Of a stretch of 64,000 nucleotides of DNA, positions 1-11,446 are shown piece after piece. The position numbers and the translations under genes are program-made. Every line of letters starts with the position of its first letter. Position 1 is the stretch's first letter. The DNA comes from Escherichia phage FL38. Under the pieces are notes generated by a model. That model searched no databases. It was not told the DNA's origin and saw only the letters and a list, made by a program, of their open reading frames with translations. The DNA lies in the sequence record PP400784; one strand, given 5' to 3'.

Positions 1-476
1 GATTTTAACTCGAACTCAAGTTCATAATGAGCAGTGTCGCCCAATCCTTCTCCTACTTTGCCATAATAGAAAGTGTCTTTGCACATTTCCACTATACCGC
101 AACCCATATCTAGAGTCAATGACTTGCGATATGTCATTACTTGCATTATTGTAGTGATATAGTCGGAGTTTACCCCTAGACTATCAATAAAATGGACGAA
201 CTCATCCCAATTTGAAAATGTCATTTCCTCGCGGTTGAATAGTCCAGATTCATTATCACCCATTTTGACCATGATCTCTGATTTTCTACAGTCAAGTCGT
301 GCATAAATTCCTTTTTGACGTAGCGCATGATCTTCGGTATCATAATAAAATTCGTGTTTTAATATGTTATCTCGATCGACGATATTATAACCGTCATACA
401 TTGCCACCCACAAATCACAGATGGTTTCGACGCCAATTTGTGAGTGTGCATAGTATTTTAACTCAAGTTCTTTCAT
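1..476 (-). CDS. CYTH-like domain protein, partial (start at 476, 3' end beyond window edge)
   Basis: Open frame on minus from ATG at 474-476 with no stop before position 1; N-terminus MKELELKYY (ExExK), FYYDTEDHALRQKGIYARLD and later HYELEFELK resemble CYTH/triphosphate-tunnel motifs; lies immediately downstream of rnh. Confidence 0.45.
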   Translation of the reverse strand, partial: MKELELKYYAHSQIGVETICDLWVAMYDGYNIVDRDNILKHEFYYDTEDHALRQKGIYARLDCRKSEIMVKMGDNESGLFNREEMTFSNWDEFVHFIDSLGVNSDYITTIMQVMTYRKSLTLDMGCGIVEMCKDTFYYGKVGEGLGDTAHYELEFELK

Positions 477-486
477 GTGTCAACCC

Positions 487-1434
487 TTAGAACTCACCAA
501 TTTTCTGCAACATTTTAACTAACGCATTTGTTACAAAATAGTTATAAATTTTACCGCGTGGTGCTGGTTTAGATTTCTCCCATGCTAACAAAATTTCATA
601 TTCGATGTTATCAGGAATAAATTCAAAATCAATAAGTTCGCGGTTTTCGTCAAAGCGTCGTGCTTCTTCCTCTGTCATCAAAGACTTTGGATCTTCGGCA
701 TCGAAAATTTGCTCTAACCATTTGGTTGCAATTGGTTTAGCTCGTTCTCCTTCCAGTCGTGAGATAATGAAATCACTACGGCACTTGATAGAAGCTACAC
801 CGTCTTTTGCGTCACCCTTAACACATTTTACCATAAGGTCTTTGTAAGGGCTACCATATTTGCATTTCTTCCACGCTTTCTGTACTGGCGACCACTGTTT
901 CACGTTTTTGTATTTGTGCAACTGTGTGTAGTCACCATCGCCTGAGTTGATCAGCACCTGGCGACCTTCGACAGAAAACTTTTTAGTTAACACAGCGATT
1001 ATATCATCCGCTTCAACTTTGTCAACCTTAATAACGTGATAAGGCATGTTCTCTTTAAACTCTTCGGTGATCTTATTGATCGCAGCAAAGATCATCTCCC
1101 AATCACGCGGATCTGCGTCTCGTTTTTCCTTACGGTTGCGTTTATAGTAAGGGGCGATATCACGTCGCCAGTAACCTTTACTTGAATCAAAGGCAAGTAC
1201 CGTAATTGGGTATTGCTCTTTGAATTTTGTCATATTATAACGCATGGTGTCAAGAATAAGATGACGAATCATGCCTTCATTAATAGGATCTTCCGGTTTA
1301 AAGGTATGCGAGATAGTAGCAATCATAAGCTGCGACATATCAATCAAATGCACACCTTCCGGCAGTTTATCTTCTGGATCATCGAAGAAATCATTAAGTG
1401 TAGCGGTAGTTTTTGTAAACGGGTTATACGTCAT
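487..1434 (-). CDS. rnh: RNase H (5'-3' exonuclease, FEN family)
   Basis: 315 aa; size and position (divergent from gene 34) match T4 rnh; FEN-like acidic motifs. Confidence 0.85.
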   Translation of the reverse strand: MTYNPFTKTTATLNDFFDDPEDKLPEGVHLIDMSQLMIATISHTFKPEDPINEGMIRHLILDTMRYNMTKFKEQYPITVLAFDSSKGYWRRDIAPYYKRNRKEKRDADPRDWEMIFAAINKITEEFKENMPYHVIKVDKVEADDIIAVLTKKFSVEGRQVLINSGDGDYTQLHKYKNVKQWSPVQKAWKKCKYGSPYKDLMVKCVKGDAKDGVASIKCRSDFIISRLEGERAKPIATKWLEQIFDAEDPKSLMTEEEARRFDENRELIDFEFIPDNIEYEILLAWEKSKPAPRGKIYNYFVTNALVKMLQKIGEF

Positions 1435-1436
1435 AA

Positions 1437-1622
1437 TTAAGTTCTCTCCACTCTCACAACAACATATTCGCCAAACGAGTTAGATACTTCACGATCATAC
1501 CCGTACTTCTCCATAACTCGCAGAATTGCATTGTTTAATTCAGCACGGAAATAATTATAATCCTTATCAGGGATTCTGTCAACTACCCATTTTGCACCTT
1601 CTGACAAATCAACTTTAACCAT
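1437..1622 (-). CDS. hypothetical protein (61 aa)
   Basis: ATG with AGAGGA SD upstream; stop abuts rnh start; divergent from gene 34. Confidence 0.5.
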   Translation of the reverse strand: MVKVDLSEGAKWVVDRIPDKDYNYFRAELNNAILRVMEKYGYDREVSNSFGEYVVVRVERT

Positions 1623-1660: not shown

Positions 1661-1668
1661 TATAAATA
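1661..1668 (+). promoter_or_regulatory. T4-type late promoter motif TATAAATA upstream of gene 34
   Basis: Exact TATAAATA ~30 nt upstream of gp34 ATG. Confidence 0.5.
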
Positions 1669-1696: not shown

Positions 1697-4600
1697 ATGG
1701 CAGATTTTTCTCAACATTTCAAGGCCACATTTGGCTTTGACGCTGGTAATGAAAAGGTCGTCAATGTAGCATTGGCTGATAAGAATGTCAACACCGATGC
1801 GATCAACGTTGAATTTTTCAATTACCATAATGGTATTACTCAGTATGACACAACTCGCGGTTATGATCAATACGGAACTACAATCTATCAAAACCGTCCG
1901 TATTATGCAAAAGAAGATATCACAAAACCAGCAGGTGATTTTGACCCGACTAAATGGCAAGCACTGCGCACGGACCCACGTTGGGATTATATTGCAGCAA
2001 CTTCCGGTGATACTCCTTTACAGTCTGGTGATTATATCGCAGCAGATGGTCAATTTGCAAACTTGACTTTCTCTATGCCAACTAAGCCAGCAGAGGGAGA
2101 CACTATAACAGTAAAAGATATCGGTGGCAAGTGTGGTGTTAACGAATTATCGTTCTTGAGTACAGGACATGAGTTTTACCATAACGGTAATGTGTATAAC
2201 CGAAAATGGTATTGCACTACCCCGTATGCAATGAACTATTTCATCTTTGTTCGTAATCGTTGGCATGTTTATCAGACAGGAACAGAGCCACGCGGTGTGT
2301 ACGCACAGCCAGCGATTGATGCTATTCAAATGCAGAATGGTGATCAGGTATTTCGTCGTAGTTCGTTGGGTAATATTACCTTAGTGCTTCCTAAGTTTGC
2401 CAACAATGGCGACATGATCCAGACTACAGACCTTGACGGATTAACCGCAACCAACCACGTTACGGTTAAAGTTCATGAGCACGCAGAAGAACAATCAATT
2501 GGCACGTCCGGTCTAAAAGAGATTATCGGTAAGCGTAGCGGTCATGGTGTATTCATCTTTGACAAGACGGAAAACTTATGGCGTTTGTGGGATGGTGATC
2601 AGTCTGTTCGTCTTAAACCGATCATCGATGACACTCGCTTGCAACCTAATAGCTATGTTGCTGTATTTGGTGATCGTGATGTTACTCTGACGCTGCCGAC
2701 CAATATCGAGCCGGGTGATCGTATTCAAGTTTCTATGCAGTATATGAACGGAAACCAGAATTGCCGTATTATCACCGCCACAGAGGATACAAAAATCCTT
2801 ATGCAGAAAAACATGGTTCAGTTTCCTAAGCGTAGCGAGTACCCATTCAATGGGACCGATACATGGACGGGAGTATCTGAATTGTCTTTCAACGCTGCAA
2901 ATGATTATGTACCTTATCTGGAGTTCTCTTATTCAGAAGGTGATGATGGTAAGAAATACTGGTTGGTGGCACATCCTCACCCGATTGTAGAACGAGTAGA
3001 TCCGACTCGTAAAGATCGTGTTGGTGTAATTGCACTGGCTACCCAAACTGAAACGAATAAAAACCATGAAGAGAATCCTAGCGACGAAGTTGCAGTAACA
3101 CCAAAAATGCTGGCTAATAAAACCGCCAACGAAACTCGACGCGGTATTGCTCGCATTGCGACTCAAGCGGAAACGCATCAAGATACTGGTTCCAACTTCC
3201 TGGATGATGTTATCGTTACGCCTAAAAAGTTAAATGACTGTGTTGCTACCGAAGCCCGTCGTGGTGTGATGGAAATTGCAACCCAGCACGAAACCAATGA
3301 AGGTTTAGACGATACCCGCGCTATTACTCCTAAGAAATTAGAAGAACGTCGCGCTTCCGAAGATCTCGCTGGTATTGCTGAAATTGTTCAGGCTGGCGGC
3401 AGTGCTGCCGCTCGACGTGGCGAAGCTGGTACAGGGATCTATAACATCAATGACCATGCTAAAATTGTTACGCCAAAAAACATCAACGAAGTCAAGGCGA
3501 CCGAAACTTCCCGTGGTGTTGGCTATCTGGCAACTGACGCGGAAGTGCAAGGGGCTACAGAATCAACCCCGCAAGATGCTTTACTCATCACGACTCGCAC
3601 GCTAACGAAACGTACTGCTACCGAATCGCGCACTGGTATCGCTGAAATTGCAACTCAGGAAGAAACAAACTTAGGTCAAAGTGATAACCATATCATCACG
3701 CCTAAAAAGTTGCATACTCGCCGCGCAACGGAAACTTTACACGGTTTAGCAGAAATTGCAACTCAGCCGGAGTTTGACGCAGGTCGTGACGATTCTCGCA
3801 TTTCTACCCCATTGAAGATTAAAACCTTCTTTGAGAATGCACAGCGTTTGAAAGTAGATCCGACTCAGGGGCTTAACCTTACTGGTGATTTGTGGCAAGG
3901 TATCATGATCAGCGGTCTGGATGCAACCGAAGACACAAAAGGTGTCGCTAAAGTTGCTACTACTCAGCTTACTGACGCTGGTCAAGATGATACTACAATC
4001 ATCACGCCTAAAAAGCTGCAAGGCAAAAAGGCCACCGAAGGTAAAGAAGGCATTATCCGAGTTGGTACTCAAGCCGAAACCGTGGCTGGTATTATGGACA
4101 ATGTAGCAATTTCTCCGAAGAACTTCAAATATGTTGTTCAGACAGAGGATACATGGAAAGCAACCGAAGCGCGTCGTGGCTTCTTGAAAGTTGCTACTCA
4201 GGAAAACTGTTTTGTTGGTGATAATCTGCAAGGTTCTACTCAAGAACTAGGAAACTACCAGCATGACGGAATTGCTGTTACTCCGAAAGGATTAAACTAC
4301 GCACTTGCTAATTTCTTACCTAAGATGGCAACCGCTCAGAATAGTTTGAAATTGGGTAACGTAGAGGCCGCTAAATGGGCGCGTAGAGACATTGACCAGA
4401 CCATAGAGAGCAATTACACGTTTAATAAAAAAGTTAACGTGAAGGGCGATTTAGAGTGCTTAAAATCAGGTTCCTTTGAAACTCTGTCTGTGACTAAGAA
4501 CTCGACCGATGTTCCGAGTAATGGTCATCTGGTGTTGGGTGAGCGTGGAGTTGACGGTCACACCGGAATTACTCTGCATGGCACAACCGCATCGGAAGGC

Positions 4601-5437
4601 ATGAAAAACTCTTGGTCTATTATCGTTGGTGGTACTGGAACAGCGCAAGTTGTTGATAGTGATGCTATCGCTTTCGGTAAAATCAATGATGGTGGAGTCG
4701 TTGAGCATTACGCCTTTGCTATGAAACACAATGGCGACGCGACAGCATATCGAGACTTTATTGCAGGTCGTAACCTGTATGCGAAACAAGGCGGTTTATA
4801 CATTGTTGACCAGTCTAATCCGGCAATGACTCGTTCCCCAGATGGTATGCTGAATATCGGTCACGGTGGAAGTGTTAACATCAAGGCAGGGCATCAAACG
4901 TTAACTACAGAGATCGCCGGACAGAAGTATCAGATCGTACATGCAGGAAACGCTGACGAAGTTCTTAACCGTCAGTTTGTTAAGAATGCTGGCGATACAA
5001 TGGTCGGTAAGCTGACTATGGATAATGCGCCTATTGTTTCTGTTAAGCATGAAGCTAGCGCGGCAACCGCTCCGGCAATCGGTAACATCGGTTTCTGGAA
5101 TATGCGAGTTACTACCCAGAACATCAAAGAAACTTATCCAGAGAAGAAAAACGGTACTCTGATGCAATGGGGTACTGACGCGGACGGGCTTACCCAGCTT
5201 TGGTCCCCTGATGGTACTCATAAACATTATATCCGTTCCGGTACTGGTGGTCAATGGACCGCATGGGGTGAAATTTACACCAAACAGAACAAGCCTACCG
5301 CTCAGGAAATTGGGGCAGTGGTTGCCGAAGGTGGTTTGATGAACTCTATGACGGTTCGTGATTGGATCAAAGTTGGTAATGTTAAAATCATCGCCAATAA
5401 TCTGACTCGTACCGTAGACTTTATCTGGGAAGACTAA
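1697..5437 (+). CDS. 34: long tail fibre proximal subunit gp34
   Basis: 1246 aa; position after rnh as in T4; internal tandem ATE..RG.AEIATQ..ITPKKL fibre repeats; strong SD AAAGGAG. Confidence 0.9.
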   Translation: MADFSQHFKATFGFDAGNEKVVNVALADKNVNTDAINVEFFNYHNGITQYDTTRGYDQYGTTIYQNRPYYAKEDITKPAGDFDPTKWQALRTDPRWDYIAATSGDTPLQSGDYIAADGQFANLTFSMPTKPAEGDTITVKDIGGKCGVNELSFLSTGHEFYHNGNVYNRKWYCTTPYAMNYFIFVRNRWHVYQTGTEPRGVYAQPAIDAIQMQNGDQVFRRSSLGNITLVLPKFANNGDMIQTTDLDGLTATNHVTVKVHEHAEEQSIGTSGLKEIIGKRSGHGVFIFDKTENLWRLWDGDQSVRLKPIIDDTRLQPNSYVAVFGDRDVTLTLPTNIEPGDRIQVSMQYMNGNQNCRIITATEDTKILMQKNMVQFPKRSEYPFNGTDTWTGVSELSFNAANDYVPYLEFSYSEGDDGKKYWLVAHPHPIVERVDPTRKDRVGVIALATQTETNKNHEENPSDEVAVTPKMLANKTANETRRGIARIATQAETHQDTGSNFLDDVIVTPKKLNDCVATEARRGVMEIATQHETNEGLDDTRAITPKKLEERRASEDLAGIAEIVQAGGSAAARRGEAGTGIYNINDHAKIVTPKNINEVKATETSRGVGYLATDAEVQGATESTPQDALLITTRTLTKRTATESRTGIAEIATQEETNLGQSDNHIITPKKLHTRRATETLHGLAEIATQPEFDAGRDDSRISTPLKIKTFFENAQRLKVDPTQGLNLTGDLWQGIMISGLDATEDTKGVAKVATTQLTDAGQDDTTIITPKKLQGKKATEGKEGIIRVGTQAETVAGIMDNVAISPKNFKYVVQTEDTWKATEARRGFLKVATQENCFVGDNLQGSTQELGNYQHDGIAVTPKGLNYALANFLPKMATAQNSLKLGNVEAAKWARRDIDQTIESNYTFNKKVNVKGDLECLKSGSFETLSVTKNSTDVPSNGHLVLGERGVDGHTGITLHGTTASEGMKNSWSIIVGGTGTAQVVDSDAIAFGKINDGGVVEHYAFAMKHNGDATAYRDFIAGRNLYAKQGGLYIVDQSNPAMTRSPDGMLNIGHGGSVNIKAGHQTLTTEIAGQKYQIVHAGNADEVLNRQFVKNAGDTMVGKLTMDNAPIVSVKHEASAATAPAIGNIGFWNMRVTTQNIKETYPEKKNGTLMQWGTDADGLTQLWSPDGTHKHYIRSGTGGQWTAWGEIYTKQNKPTAQEIGAVVAEGGLMNSMTVRDWIKVGNVKIIANNLTRTVDFIWED
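3010..4300 (+). repeat. in-frame tandem ~40-aa tail-fibre repeats within gp34 (about 9 copies)
   Basis: Repeated ...TPKKL....ATE.RRG.AEIATQ.E... units seen in the translation. Confidence 0.6.
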
Positions 5438-5470: not shown

Positions 5471-6610
5471 ATGACACAAGATATAGAATTACGCAATACT
5501 GGAATTAGGTTTGCGCATTTCGACGAAGACTCTGCGACATTTACCAGCATTTCAGAAAATAACTCTGTGATGTATAAGCTGGAAGTGCGCGGATCTAATG
5601 CGGATTCTACCAAACCAGCAAGGATTAGATTTAATGGAGTGGAGATCGTTGGCACTGGCTATGAAAATGGCCTAAATTTTAAAGTTCTTACTCCAACTGG
5701 ACAACTACACGAAGAAAAGGTATTCTATGGTCGCGGTGCTGTTTTGGCAATGCGTGATTATCTTTCTTTGCTGAAAGGTGACTATATCATTGCGATGGCA
5801 ACGCATGGAGAATTGTTTGCAGATCCGATCAGTGATGGTGTATTCTCTAAGCTGGGATCTGTATCATTCCCGAATCACATTTTGCTACAGCAAATGCCTC
5901 GTGTATCCTATGCAGCAATTTATTCTACTAAAATGGGTAAAATTGTGTGCGAAGGGATGCAAGCAACTCACGGGGAAGGACAAGATTCATCTATACAAAT
6001 TGAGAAAGTCTATGATACTATAGATGATCTTGCTATAACAGGAACACCACAACGATTTTTAGATTATCCGGTTGAGTATGTTAGCGAAGATTCCGAACAT
6101 TTCGAGCTAATACAATGGCCTCGTGATGAGACCAGCGCCCCACTTGAGGATTTTAACATAAAGGCAGGTGACAAACTATCAATATCCTTTGAATTGTTCC
6201 GTGATAGTGCCGCAGCCGCAGCCAACGTAACAGCGCGTTTCTATCACAACTACTTCACCGATGGACAATATCAAACTGGTGTTCGATACAATGCCAGCAA
6301 AAAAGACCAATGGGAAAAGTTTGAAGCCGTCTATACCGTACCGGAAGGAGTTGATAGTGTAGTAACTGGTTGTATCAGATATCCAACCAACTCCAATGAA
6401 GGTATTGTTAAAATTAGAAACATACTAATAACGCCGATCAGTGGAGTCGTCAAAACTACTGGTCCTACTTCATTTGGTGTTAATGGTGTTAGAACAACTC
6501 ATATTCAGGATAACGGTGATTTTACTAACCCTGTAATGAGTCTTCTTAAACTACCCAGAGATAATAAACACATCACATCCAACAACTTTAAAGAGTTCGA
6601 TGTTGATTAA
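5471..6610 (+). CDS. 35: long tail fibre hinge/connector gp35
   Basis: 379 aa (T4 gp35 is 372 aa), between 34 and 36. Confidence 0.75.
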   Translation: MTQDIELRNTGIRFAHFDEDSATFTSISENNSVMYKLEVRGSNADSTKPARIRFNGVEIVGTGYENGLNFKVLTPTGQLHEEKVFYGRGAVLAMRDYLSLLKGDYIIAMATHGELFADPISDGVFSKLGSVSFPNHILLQQMPRVSYAAIYSTKMGKIVCEGMQATHGEGQDSSIQIEKVYDTIDDLAITGTPQRFLDYPVEYVSEDSEHFELIQWPRDETSAPLEDFNIKAGDKLSISFELFRDSAAAAANVTARFYHNYFTDGQYQTGVRYNASKKDQWEKFEAVYTVPEGVDSVVTGCIRYPTNSNEGIVKIRNILITPISGVVKTTGPTSFGVNGVRTTHIQDNGDFTNPVMSLLKLPRDNKHITSNNFKEFDVD

Positions 6611-8376: not shown

Positions 8377-11166
8377 ATGGCAGATTTAAGCAGAATCCAA
8401 TTTAAACGCACTAGCACTAAAGGTCGTAAACCTGATGCTAGTACGATGAATCCGGGGGAATTGGCAATCAACCTTGCGGATCAATATCTTCTTACTAAAA
8501 ATGATTCCGGTGCTATTATCAATTTAAGTTGTCCTCCTGTTTATGACCGCGATGTTACAATGGCGGGTAAGGTTAAAGGTAATAATTATATCTTAAGTAA
8601 AACCGCTAACTATCTGGAAGATCAGACCGCACGAGATCTTAATTACTTTGGTGCTTTCCGAACTAATGGACAAGATGGTCTTTTAGATCTAACTCTTAAT
8701 GTTCCTCATTCTGCTGGCATTAATCATGGTCGAGGATTTACTTTCCGTTATGCGACTGGCGGATCTCGTGTTGAAACCTATGGGTATAATGCACAGGGAC
8801 AAAAAGCATTTAGCTATAAAATGTATCACGAAGGTGATAAACCAACTCCAGGAGAATTGAACGTCTATAGCAAACAAGAAATTGACCGGATGTTTGTTAA
8901 GAACGTTAAAATGGTTGTTCCTTCTGGTGGTACAAACCGTGGTTATTTTAAAATTGCATCCGCAATGATCCCGCAGAGTGGTCGGATGGCGTTTCTGCGA
9001 ATCTATGGTGGTAATGGATATAATGTAAACTCATATGACCAAGTTGATTTTCTTGAAATTGTTATTCGTAGTGGTAATAATAACCCTAAAGGCGTTAGTA
9101 TTGCTGCATATCGTCGAAATTCTTTGAACGTCCATGAAGTATTTGCAATTAATACTTCCGGTGATAGCTATGACATTTATGTTAACTATGGTCGTTACAC
9201 TGATAACGTTATTGTAGAGTTTGGAAAAACTGTTGACGTCGCATTGACTGTTCATGATGTTCCTGAATTTTCGGCGACTAAACCAGAAACCGGAACTAAA
9301 TTTGATGCTCGTGTTATTACGATGTTCAACACCGAAAACAAAGCCGGAACATTGATGTTTGATAATAACAATCAGTTAACCTATGATATTGTTAGCCTTA
9401 GCAATGGTCCTGATGATGTTAGAAATTATCTGCGTAAATTCCGAAGTAAAGCGGGTGAAATGATTTGGCATGAAACCGTTCAGGGTGCTGTATATCGTCT
9501 TGCTACTGGAACTACTGATTCTACGGAAGTTCTTAGAGTTGATTCTAACAGTGCTCTCCCGGGTAGCTATAAAGGATATGTAATTACTGGTAAAATGGAA
9601 TTGCACGGTAGCGGTAGTGCGATGAATTTACACCGCCAGACTGGTCAAGCTGCATATATGGCGTGGTGGGATCGTCGTGATGGTAAAAACCAACGTAGTG
9701 GTTATATCGGCCATGCGGATGGTACTACTGATGGTTTTGTGTGGCGTAATGATGTTGGTGCGAACTCATTTGATTTGGAAAGTAGTGGACAAGTAAATTT
9801 GACTACAGGAAAAACAAAAATTGTATATACCAACGGACAATATTATTCCGCTAACTCTGATGCATTCCGTATGATTTACGGCAATTATGGCGCATTCTGG
9901 CGTAATGACGGCACTAAAGTTTATCTTCTTTCTACTGCCGAAAATGATCGTTTTGGTGGATGGAACGGCAACCGACCATTCATTTACGATTTGACTTCCG
10001 GTAACGTTCAATTAGGCGGTGACGGTAACGAAGCTGCATTAACGTTAGAACGTGCAAGCAAAGCCGCTCGTTTTACGGGTGATGTTTATGTAGAAAAAGG
10101 TTTCCTTCATTTCTCTAGTGGACGATTAGGATCTCGTGATTTCTTTAAAATCAACCATTGGGGTGATAGCAATAACGGTCGTGATAACATTTTGCAGTTT
10201 GAAGACAATAGCGGTGCACACTTCACAACTGAACGTAAAATGGCAACCGGTGAAATTACTGCGCGATTTAAAGGATTTGTGCGTGTAGAATCTGGCGAAA
10301 TTACATTCCATGCTAACCGTGGTTCTTCTTCGCAATTTAGTCTCAATACATGGGGTAATGAATCACGAAAACAAGTTTTTGAATGTAAGGATGCAACAAG
10401 TTATCATTGGTATACCGAACGTACTGCGGGTGGAACTGGTCCGGTTAAGTTCTCTGTTGCAGGTTCTTTCTATAGCGGAAGCGATGCTAACGTAGGCGGT
10501 AGTCTGAATTTTGGTAATGCTATTCAACGCGGCGCTAGCGTCATTACTATAGATTCTGGTTCTGCGGGTGCTGGTTCTTTTGCATCTCAACATGATGATA
10601 ACGTCAAAGCACCTATTTTCCAACGTTTAGACCGTGGTGATGCGTCTACATATGTTCCTTTGATCAAGCAACGTTATGTTCAAGGTGCAGTAACATTCTC
10701 GTTGGGTATGCTTCTTAATGAAGGTTCATGGCGAGTTCATGTTAAAGGTTCTGGTGTTGAATCTAATACTACCTTCTATAAAAACGGCGATTTCCAAGCT
10801 GGACGCAATGGTAACTTTAACGACGTTTACATTCGCTCTGATGCTCGCCTTAAAATCAACAAGGAAGAGTATAAGGAGAATGCCACTGATAAAGTTAATC
10901 GCTTGACGGTATACACCTATGACAAGGTTAAATCTTTAACCGACCGTACTGTCATTGCTCATGAAGTTGGTATTATTGCTCAGGATCTTGAAAAAGAATT
11001 ACCGGAAGCAGTAACAACTTCTAACATCGGCGATCCCGATAAGCCAGAAGAGATCTTAACAATTTCTAACTCTGCTGTCAACGCTCTTTTAATTAAGGCG
11101 TTTCAGGAAATGAGCGAAGAATTGAATGCCGTTAAAGCTGAACTAGCGGAACTTAAAAAGAATTAA
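8377..11166 (+). CDS. 37: long tail fibre distal subunit gp37 (receptor-binding fibre) with C-terminal intramolecular chaperone domain
   Basis: 929 aa; N-terminus MADLSRIQFKRTSTKGRKPDAS..GELAINL and internal AGSFASQ..DASTYVPLIKQRYVQG match T4 gp37. Confidence 0.9.
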   Translation: MADLSRIQFKRTSTKGRKPDASTMNPGELAINLADQYLLTKNDSGAIINLSCPPVYDRDVTMAGKVKGNNYILSKTANYLEDQTARDLNYFGAFRTNGQDGLLDLTLNVPHSAGINHGRGFTFRYATGGSRVETYGYNAQGQKAFSYKMYHEGDKPTPGELNVYSKQEIDRMFVKNVKMVVPSGGTNRGYFKIASAMIPQSGRMAFLRIYGGNGYNVNSYDQVDFLEIVIRSGNNNPKGVSIAAYRRNSLNVHEVFAINTSGDSYDIYVNYGRYTDNVIVEFGKTVDVALTVHDVPEFSATKPETGTKFDARVITMFNTENKAGTLMFDNNNQLTYDIVSLSNGPDDVRNYLRKFRSKAGEMIWHETVQGAVYRLATGTTDSTEVLRVDSNSALPGSYKGYVITGKMELHGSGSAMNLHRQTGQAAYMAWWDRRDGKNQRSGYIGHADGTTDGFVWRNDVGANSFDLESSGQVNLTTGKTKIVYTNGQYYSANSDAFRMIYGNYGAFWRNDGTKVYLLSTAENDRFGGWNGNRPFIYDLTSGNVQLGGDGNEAALTLERASKAARFTGDVYVEKGFLHFSSGRLGSRDFFKINHWGDSNNGRDNILQFEDNSGAHFTTERKMATGEITARFKGFVRVESGEITFHANRGSSSQFSLNTWGNESRKQVFECKDATSYHWYTERTAGGTGPVKFSVAGSFYSGSDANVGGSLNFGNAIQRGASVITIDSGSAGAGSFASQHDDNVKAPIFQRLDRGDASTYVPLIKQRYVQGAVTFSLGMLLNEGSWRVHVKGSGVESNTTFYKNGDFQAGRNGNFNDVYIRSDARLKINKEEYKENATDKVNRLTVYTYDKVKSLTDRTVIAHEVGIIAQDLEKELPEAVTTSNIGDPDKPEEILTISNSAVNALLIKAFQEMSEELNAVKAELAELKKN
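10837..11166 (+). other. C-terminal intramolecular chaperone (peptidase S74-like) domain of gp37
   Basis: SDARLKINKEEY ... GIIAQDLEKELPEAV ... coiled-coil end; matches the SDxRLK autoproteolytic chaperone signature of phage fibres/endosialidases. Confidence 0.65.
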
Positions 11167-11206
11167 GGAAACTCCCAGGGAAGGGAACTACTAAGGAGAA
11201 ACGGCT

Positions 11207-11446
11207 ATGGTCTATAATATCGTCATTGGTGCTTTGTCTAATTTCGGAATGAAATTATTGTCAAAGTTAATTAGTGAAAAGATGCTCACTAAAATTTTCT
11301 TCTATTGCGCTCGTCGTCTTGCGGATTATACCAATACGCCAATTGATGATCGTTTTGTGGAAGAACTTTATAAGGAGTTTAATAAAGATCAGTCAGAAGA
11401 TAGTAACGAGCAAGATAAACCTAGTGATAGTCAACTACCTAAATAA
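11207..11446 (+). CDS. hypothetical small protein (79 aa), N-terminal hydrophobic segment, acidic C-terminus
   Basis: SD AAGGAGAA; occupies the T4 gp38 position but is unrelated in size. Confidence 0.5.
   Translation: MVYNIVIGALSNFGMKLLSKLISEKMLTKIFFYCARRLADYTNTPIDDRFVEELYKEFNKDQSEDSNEQDKPSDSQLPK

Follow-up and report, generated by a model that had tools for sequence, protein, structure and literature searches.

The minus-strand open reading frame (ORF) that runs off the left edge of the window analysed here (64,000 nucleotides of Escherichia phage FL38, sequence record PP400784) encodes a CYTH protein, i.e. a triphosphate tunnel metalloenzyme (TTM), and about this fold and family assignment we have practically no doubt. 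We think it probable that the protein is a stand-alone CYTH hydrolase of the YgiF type, whose gene is fixed between rnh and dsbA, and whose default substrate is inorganic triphosphate (PPPi), short polyphosphate or a nucleoside triphosphate (NTP). The ORF has its ATG at 476-474 and extends over 158 codons to and past the window edge, as described in an earlier sequence-only reading of the window. The three strings quoted in that reading, MKELELKYY (residues 1-9), FYYDTEDHALRQKGIYARLD (43-62) and HYELEFELK (150-158), are all present. The source of the DNA is a Krischvirus, a T4-like coliphage of the RB49/Phi1/JSE type; over bases 1-1700 the window has 98.9% identity to phage TB34, and 58 records reach 90% or more. 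The ORF is the orthologue of RB49p245, phi1p245 and TB34TRB_110. The complete gene, as found in TB34, Phi1 and RB49, codes for 198-199 amino acids (aa), and the final 41 codons lie outside the window.

1..476, minus strand: 5' part of the CYTH/TTM gene, codons 1-158 of 199 (translation, PHROG, Pfam, annotated coding sequence in TB34, Phi1 and RB49)

Family assignment and fold

The window fragment matched the Pfam family CYTH (PF01928) with an E-value of 4.7e-4 and 20.5 bits, slightly below the gathering score of 23.2 bits, whereas the full-length homologues scored above it (29.5 bits for the 199-aa TB34 protein, and 28.7 bits). The resemblance to CYTH domains first noticed in the fragment is thus borne out by the complete protein, which was checked through its TB34 homologue. 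The fragment also matched PHROG 14893, a family of unknown function (E 4e-104), which goes far beyond chance. A sequence search returned about 44 close relatives, every one of them phage-like, and a profile of these relatives found hundreds of bacterial proteins of about 200 aa belonging to the CYTH/inorganic triphosphatase/YgiF group, with E-values from 1e-15 to 1e-49. A phage-only profile could be aligned with the tunnel domain of E. coli YgiF over residues 2-195 (hhalign 94.8%, E 5e-8), and YgiF was its sole sequence match in the PDB. Profiles were required for the PDB comparison because a single-sequence phmmer search with the full-length protein gave noise only: YgiF appeared with an E-value of 1.2, and a hit to an 'immunity protein TriTu' (E 0.072) was not credible. 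NCBIfam gave no meaningful match for the full-length protein.

The AlphaFold2 model (mean predicted local distance difference test score 94.5) has eight long strands and a C-terminal helix, i.e. the eight-stranded antiparallel beta-barrel tunnel with its C-terminal plug helix. The acidic motifs fall on tunnel strands, as a CYTH protein would have them: E3 and E5 on beta1, E84 on beta5, E154 and E156 on beta8. Tunnel-face positions were assigned throughout by strand alternation and homology to YgiF, not from the coordinates of the model. The protein ends at residue 199, CYTH is its only Pfam match, and no CHAD domain (PF05235) was found. In this respect it differs from YgiF, a protein of 433 aa with a linker and a CHAD domain, and is like the bacterial stand-alone CYTH proteins (P0044, P0045, uncultured Gammaproteobacteria), which are single-domain proteins of about 200 aa annotated as 'inorganic triphosphatase' or 'CYTH domain-containing protein'. 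Proteins of the P0044/P0045 type are 25-31% identical to the phage protein (profile E 1e-44 to 1e-49), and the bacterial stand-alone proteins have the C-terminal ELELELKSGDEKAL...SKAERGY in common with it.

The CYTH assignment is already known: GenBank notes have carried the RB49 match since 2003, and it was published in 2006, when Nolan et al. (Virol J 3:30, PMC1524935) listed 'RB49ORF244c, CYTH domain, 0.0026' among novel ORFs, and the RefSeq record of RB49 carries the note 'similar to P45267, P30871, HI1598, ygiF'.

The plug helix bears on the question whether the protein could be an RNA 5'-triphosphatase of the Cet1 type, which would convert 5'-ppp RNA to the pp or p form and thus accelerate host mRNA decay or take part in processing of phage RNA or primers. 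Such a function would fit the position beside rnh, among neighbours acting on nucleic acids. However, the conserved SKAERG plug helix (187-196) closes off the tunnel at one end, like that of small-molecule TTMs, and the protein has no RNA-binding extension. There was no match to the Pfam family mRNA_triPase (PF02940) even at E-values up to 10, and the fold likeness is much weaker than that to YgiF, thus we consider an RNA triphosphatase very improbable.

Catalytic residues and reaction type

The assignments of catalytic and tunnel-lining residues, and the junction with the upstream gene that delimits the N-terminus, are as follows.

456..470, minus strand: ExExK motif E3-L-E5-L-K7 on strand beta1, with E3 and E5 as metal-2 ligands; corresponds to YgiF E4/E6/K8 (alignment, PMC4641920)
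339..359, minus strand: tunnel face of strand beta2, K40, E42, Y44 and D46 (column comparison, invariants, PMC8233210)
291..305, minus strand: Y58-A-R60-L-D62 on strand beta3, codons tat gca cga ctt gac (alignments, PMC8233210)
225..266, minus strand: K71 on beta4 and F80-x-R82-x-E84 on beta5 (alignments, PMC4641920)
63..128, minus strand: R117 on beta6, and E130, C132, D134, F136 and Y138 on beta7, tunnel face (column comparison, invariants)
3..23, minus strand: E152-L-E154-F-E156-L-K158 on beta8 (alignments, PMC4641920, codons read directly)
480..489, minus strand: rnh/CYTH junction, with the rnh stop codon TAA at 489-487, a Shine-Dalgarno-like AAGGG at 488-484 and an in-frame TGA at 482-480 (direct sequence reading)

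The active site of YgiF (PDB 5a60/5a61) has been established by structure and mutagenesis (Martinez et al. 2015, PMC4641920). Metal 1 is bound by E160. Metal 2, the activator of the attacking water, is held by E4, E6 and E162, and the acidic patch also includes the counterpart of AtTTM3 E90. R56 probably donates the proton, and K69 orients E4. The full equivalent set, i.e. the metal-1 Glu, the acidic patch of metal 2 and the catalytic Arg, is present in the phage protein. The metal-1 ligand E160 corresponds to E154, and the acidic patch E4, E6, E83 and E162 to E3, E5, E84 and E156, of which E156 is a metal-2 ligand and E84 is the fourth Glu of the patch (YgiF E83, AtTTM3 E90). R60 is the catalytic Arg equivalent to R56, and K71 is probably the equivalent of K69, a position at which the alignments disagree by 1-2 residues. 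The two proteins also have in common the ExExK motif and the SKAxRGY/F plug helix, although the phage protein has three residues deleted around the beta3-beta5 hairpins and the overall identity is only 22-26%. E42-x-Y44 stands where the DxY motif, the water-positioning motif of TTMs (PMC8233210), would be.

These residues are strongly conserved. ExExK does not vary in any of the 15 phage-clade and 47 bacterial homologues. In the phage-clade set, which includes two uncultured T4-like phages and reaches down to about 30% identity, E3, E5, K7, R60, K71, R82, E84, E152, E154, E156, K187 and R190 are all invariant. R117 is invariant in the 13 sequences of the Krischvirus lineage; its apparent variability in the set of 15 is due to misalignment of two sequences (P0121 and P0126), both of which have an Arg a few residues away.

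By analogy with the characterised relatives, from which this mechanism is deduced, the eight-stranded barrel would close round a triphosphate group, with one Mg2+ or Mn2+ ion held by E154 and the substrate, and a second one by E3, E5 and E156. E84 and K71 would orient these, the second ion would activate a water molecule and R60 would protonate the bridging oxygen, leading to hydrolysis of the terminal phosphate. With PPPi, short polyphosphate or NTP as default substrate, the phage enzyme would serve housekeeping of the phosphate or nucleotide pool during infection. The narrower proposal that PPPi is the physiological substrate is a tentative one.

The sequence-only reading had named class IV adenylate cyclases and triphosphatases together as CYTH proteins. 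The triphosphatase part of this suggestion stands, the cyclase part does not. True class IV adenylate cyclases are marked by HFxxxxExExK, with HF placed four residues ahead of ExExK, by ExA, in which Ala replaces the second Glu, and by a small neutral residue where xRxR has its first Arg (Vogt et al., PMC8233210). The phage protein, unlike CyaB and YpAC-IV (PDB 2fjt, 3n0y), lacks all three signatures. With ExExK starting as early as residue 3 and the frame closed 5' of the ATG, there is no room for HFxxxxExExK. The in-frame TGA lies two codons 5' of the ATG, which makes the ATG at 476-474 the sole possible start and rules out a longer ORF with an N-terminal extension. The second Glu is kept in the invariant E154-F-E156, where cyclases have ExA, and the first Arg, R60, is likewise invariant.

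From these features we predict that the phage protein has no cyclisation activity, and regard it as very probable that it is an active hydrolase. A CyaB-type enzyme making cAMP to reprogramme the host would belong to the same superfamily, and three GenBank records (AV108, KMB43, PHB13) are labelled 'adenylate cyclase', but with all three published discriminators failing this possibility is scarcely credible. Because the signatures are absent the label is wrong; it is a legacy mis-annotation, of a kind that, according to PMC3440374, is known for CYTH proteins. The label 'inorganic triphosphatase' used for the Makalu phages would be nearer the truth, as a putative assignment.

The tunnel of the phage clade

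Although the metal ligands and the catalytic Arg are those of YgiF, the lining of the tunnel is not. Comparison of the 15 phage-clade with the 47 bacterial homologues showed differences at the following positions (equivalent YgiF residues that differ from the phage protein are given in brackets).

Position 40 (YgiF L36): Lys, invariant, in the phage clade; Leu in bacteria
Position 42 (YgiF N38): Glu or Asp in the phage clade; Asn in bacteria
Position 58 (YgiF G54): Tyr in 12/15 and Phe in 1/15 of the phage clade; Ala or Gly in bacteria
Position 62 (YgiF R58): Asp in 14/15 and Asn in 1/15 of the phage clade; Arg in 47/47 bacterial sequences
Position 80 (YgiF H79): Phe in the phage clade; His or Ser in bacteria
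Position 115: Thr in the phage clade; Phe in bacteria
Position 132: Cys, invariant, in the phage clade; Ala in bacteria
Position 136 (YgiF G145): Phe in the phage clade; Gly in 47/47 bacterial sequences
Position 138 (YgiF V147): Tyr, invariant, in the phage clade; Val or Ile in bacteria

The bacterial stand-alone proteins keep A-x-R-x-R and the Leu/Asn/His/Phe/Gly lining, which the phage clade has changed. On beta3 the YgiF-type pattern, a small residue-x-Arg-x-Arg, is replaced by Y58-A-R60-L-D62. The remaining two phage-clade sequences have Ser or Val at position 58.

An aromatic residue two positions before the catalytic Arg is known from mammalian 25-kDa thiamine triphosphatase (ThTPase; PDB 3bhd, 5a64), whose motif is W/YxRxR. 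W53 of this enzyme stacks on the thiazole ring, and the corresponding residue is small in other TTMs (PMC8233210). The second Arg of the motif binds phosphate in ThTPase. Y58 occupies the W53 position (the register is ungapped around YYDT...R), and ExE is found in both proteins. The phage clade thus has the aromatic residue, mostly Tyr, and the first Arg, but has Asp or Asn at the position of the second, and Y79 of ThTPase corresponds to R82. As far as the alignment tells, the likeness to ThTPase is one of a single position and not of family membership, and Y-x-R-x-D is, by its sequence, neither the canonical TTM nor the ThTPase form. This tunnel variant (Y58-x-R60-x-D62 with the clade-specific K40, C132 and Y138) appears to be a new observation. 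We infer that the tunnel end that holds the 'tail' of the substrate has been rebuilt in the phage clade (K40, E42, Y58, D62, F80, C132, F136, Y138), therefore the true substrate may differ from plain PPPi.

A specialised hydrolase of organic triphosphates must also be considered. The substrate could be thiamine triphosphate (ThTP) or AThTP, an alarmone (e.g. pppGpp or pppApp), a damaged or antiviral nucleotide (e.g. ITP, dITP or ddhNTP), or a 5'-ppp signalling oligonucleotide, and its hydrolysis would blunt a starvation or defence response of the host. The clade-specific changes are concentrated in the part of the tunnel that receives the organic 'tail' in ThTPase and other TTMs: besides the aromatic residue at the W53 position, the changes of Arg to D62, Leu to K40 and Asn to E42 alter the charge at the tunnel end, and those of His to F80, Gly to F136 and Val to Y138 bring in aromatics. 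On the other hand, Y58 is not invariant, the second Arg required by the ThTPase motif is missing, and the hhalign probability against human ThTPase was 1.2%, not significant alone. PADLOC gave no match to known defence-system proteins for the phage protein, for a divergent allele or for the nearest bacterial relative, and we found no published link to anti-defence. Taken together with the evidence on alleles given below, we consider an organic substrate of this kind rather unlikely.

Alleles, gene neighbourhood and expression

The gene is a site of allele exchange. In phage Skers and two metagenomic phages the DNA of ORF247, rnh, dsbA and gene 33 is 95-100% identical to that of TB34, whereas CYTH codons ~9-150, i.e. 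the central ~140 codons, are just 36-66% identical. The ends of the gene, the first ~24 nt and the last ~150 nt, are again 98-100% identical (compared stretches: L003 4001-4600, L004 5001-5591 and L006 3443-4033). At least five allele types occur at the locus. Synonymous sites are saturated in the central part (proportion of synonymous differences, pS, ~0.75), whereas the synonymous divergence (dS) of the flanks is 0-0.15, and the ratio of nonsynonymous to synonymous divergence (dN/dS) in the CYTH gene is 0.16-0.34, with no sign of positive selection. Because of this combination of saturated centre, low-dS flanks and dN/dS below 0.35, the pattern fits old, diverged alleles that were moved by recombination between related phages and have been under purifying selection; it does not fit in-situ hypermutation or diversifying or positive selection. 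Allele swapping by recombination at the CYTH gene appears to be a new point as well.

The exchange of deep alleles at one locus in genomes otherwise 95-100% identical is sometimes a pattern of host-phage conflict, and could in this sense speak for an organic triphosphate as substrate. However, allele exchange is common for many genes of T4-like phages, and the low dN/dS gives no hint of positive selection. A more far-reaching version would see in the Krischvirus lineage a distinct CYTH subfamily ([Y/F]-x-R-x-[D/N], K40, C132, Y138), whose rebuilt 'tail' pocket favours an organic triphosphate over PPPi and which erases a stress or immune signal of this kind early in infection, e.g. ThTP/AThTP, a (p)ppNpp alarmone or an antiviral nucleotide, with the allele shuffling reflecting conflict. 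We regard this as improbable.

The variability of the central region also raises the question whether the protein is a catalytically dead or very slow triphosphate 'sponge', or the gene a dispensable passenger. The central region does evolve faster than its neighbours (protein identity between Skers and the reference is 57% for CYTH and 96% for rnh), and loss of the conserved second Arg could slow turnover. Moreover, one natural copy, that of G2494 (L009 1501-2096), is frameshifted by a 1-nt deletion at nt 175, in codon 59, just before the catalytic Arg, and is annotated as two ORFs; the copy may be a natural pseudogene, or the deletion an error of sequencing. Against this stand the invariance of all metal ligands and of the catalytic Arg down to about 30% identity, and the intact gene in 57 of the 58 copies, G2494 being the sole broken one, as well as its presence at the same locus in more distant uncultured T4-like phages. 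Purifying selection acts specifically on the strand positions assigned to the tunnel face: within the variable region their entropy is 0.66 bits, compared with 1.55 bits at the intervening positions (Mann-Whitney p 6e-6), which is the pattern expected of an active enzyme with a conserved substrate. A dead protein or passenger gene is therefore very unlikely in our view.

The gene lies in a conserved neighbourhood, of which the following features fall within the window.

487..1434, minus strand: rnh (T4-type RNase H / 5'-3' exonuclease), directly upstream of the CYTH gene and in the same direction (Pfam RNaseH_C 2.6e-37, 5_3_exonuc_N 4.8e-18)
998..1025, minus strand: perfect sigma-70 consensus (TTGACA-16-TATAAT with an upstream TG) inside rnh (consensus match only)
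1437..1622, minus strand: 61-aa ORF between gene 34 and rnh (PHROG 3594, a family of unknown function, E 2.6e-31)

In TB34, Phi1 and RB49 the gene order is ORF247-rnh-CYTH-dsbA-33-59-32, with gene 34 adjoining ORF247 on the opposite strand, and only 10 nt separate the rnh stop from the CYTH ATG. Every one of the 58 Krischvirus-type genomes found has the CYTH gene between rnh and dsbA, and a tblastn search of the phage collection detected it in these 58 records only; T4 itself gave no match. In two uncultured, more distant T4-like phages it is again found just upstream of dsbA-33. On the T4 map, dsbA follows rnh directly. The sequence-only reading had set this gene apart from what follows rnh in T4, and the order rnh-CYTH-dsbA-33 in Phi1 and RB49 agrees with it.

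Some observations on the surroundings should be mentioned. The 61-aa ORF at 1437-1622, which adjoins the start of rnh or overlaps with it, is conserved in Phi1, RB49 and Skers. In the TB34 assembly one nucleotide is missing from an A-run where dsbA begins (TB34 locus 4597-4872, just beyond the window edge; TB34 locus coordinates equal window coordinates plus 5000), probably because the homopolymer was misread in sequencing, and dsbA is without annotation there. Gene 35 is a 379-aa ORF on the plus strand of the window (5471-6610), likewise in Phi1, whereas in TB34 (TB34 locus 10471-11361) it is annotated shorter, with 296 aa, which reflects an assembly or annotation difference. The 64-kb window contains no tRNA genes and gave no match to Rfam families at gathering thresholds.

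As to expression, the CYTH gene is part of the block of early replication genes that runs leftward, and in the surrounding 11.7 kb its strand has no late promoter of the T4 type (TATAAATA). The only TATAAATA in this neighbourhood is on the plus strand at window positions 1661-1668 and serves gene 34, whose start (1697) it precedes by 29 nt, in the 74-nt intergenic region between gene 34 and the divergent ORF247. The sigma-70 consensus at 1025-998 points towards the CYTH gene and is a candidate for an early promoter. Sites resembling sigma-70 promoters are over-represented on the CYTH strand; strong ones exceed expectation about 2.7-fold in this region (20 found vs 7.5 expected). A similar site is present in the conserved CYTH 3' end, upstream of dsbA and outside the window (TB34 locus 4983-4954). 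We infer that the CYTH gene may be co-transcribed early with rnh.

The nearest bacterial relatives, P0044 and P0045, are, unlike the phage gene, chromosomal housekeeping genes; they adjoin genes for a PHO4-type phosphate transporter and a PhoU-like protein, a neighbourhood that is consistent with phosphate or polyphosphate housekeeping. The lineage of RB49-like T4-type phages would have gained the CYTH gene from bacteria and kept it in the early replication-gene block.

Several points weigh against our reading of the protein as a YgiF-type hydrolase with PPPi-like default substrates. The second Arg, present in 47/47 bacterial sequences, is Asp or Asn in the phage clade, and aromatic residues have taken the place of several small or aliphatic ones in the tunnel; both changes argue against simple PPPi specificity. 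Should the G2494 deletion be genuine, the phage can do without the gene in culture. The timing of expression is deduced from consensus promoter matches alone, and we found no published work on the biochemistry, structure or genetics of a phage-clade protein.

The practical value of the analysis is that these proteins can be relabelled as CYTH/TTM-family triphosphatases instead of adenylate cyclases. What interest remains lies in the Y-x-R-x-D variant of the tunnel, in the mosaicism of the alleles and in the benefit that a T4-type phage draws from a triphosphate-tunnel hydrolase whose gene it keeps at a fixed site among early replication genes. If the substrate is PPPi, the gene would be a minor auxiliary gene of phosphate metabolism; if it is a signalling or antiviral nucleotide, the phage proteins would represent a new enzyme class for phage counter-defence.
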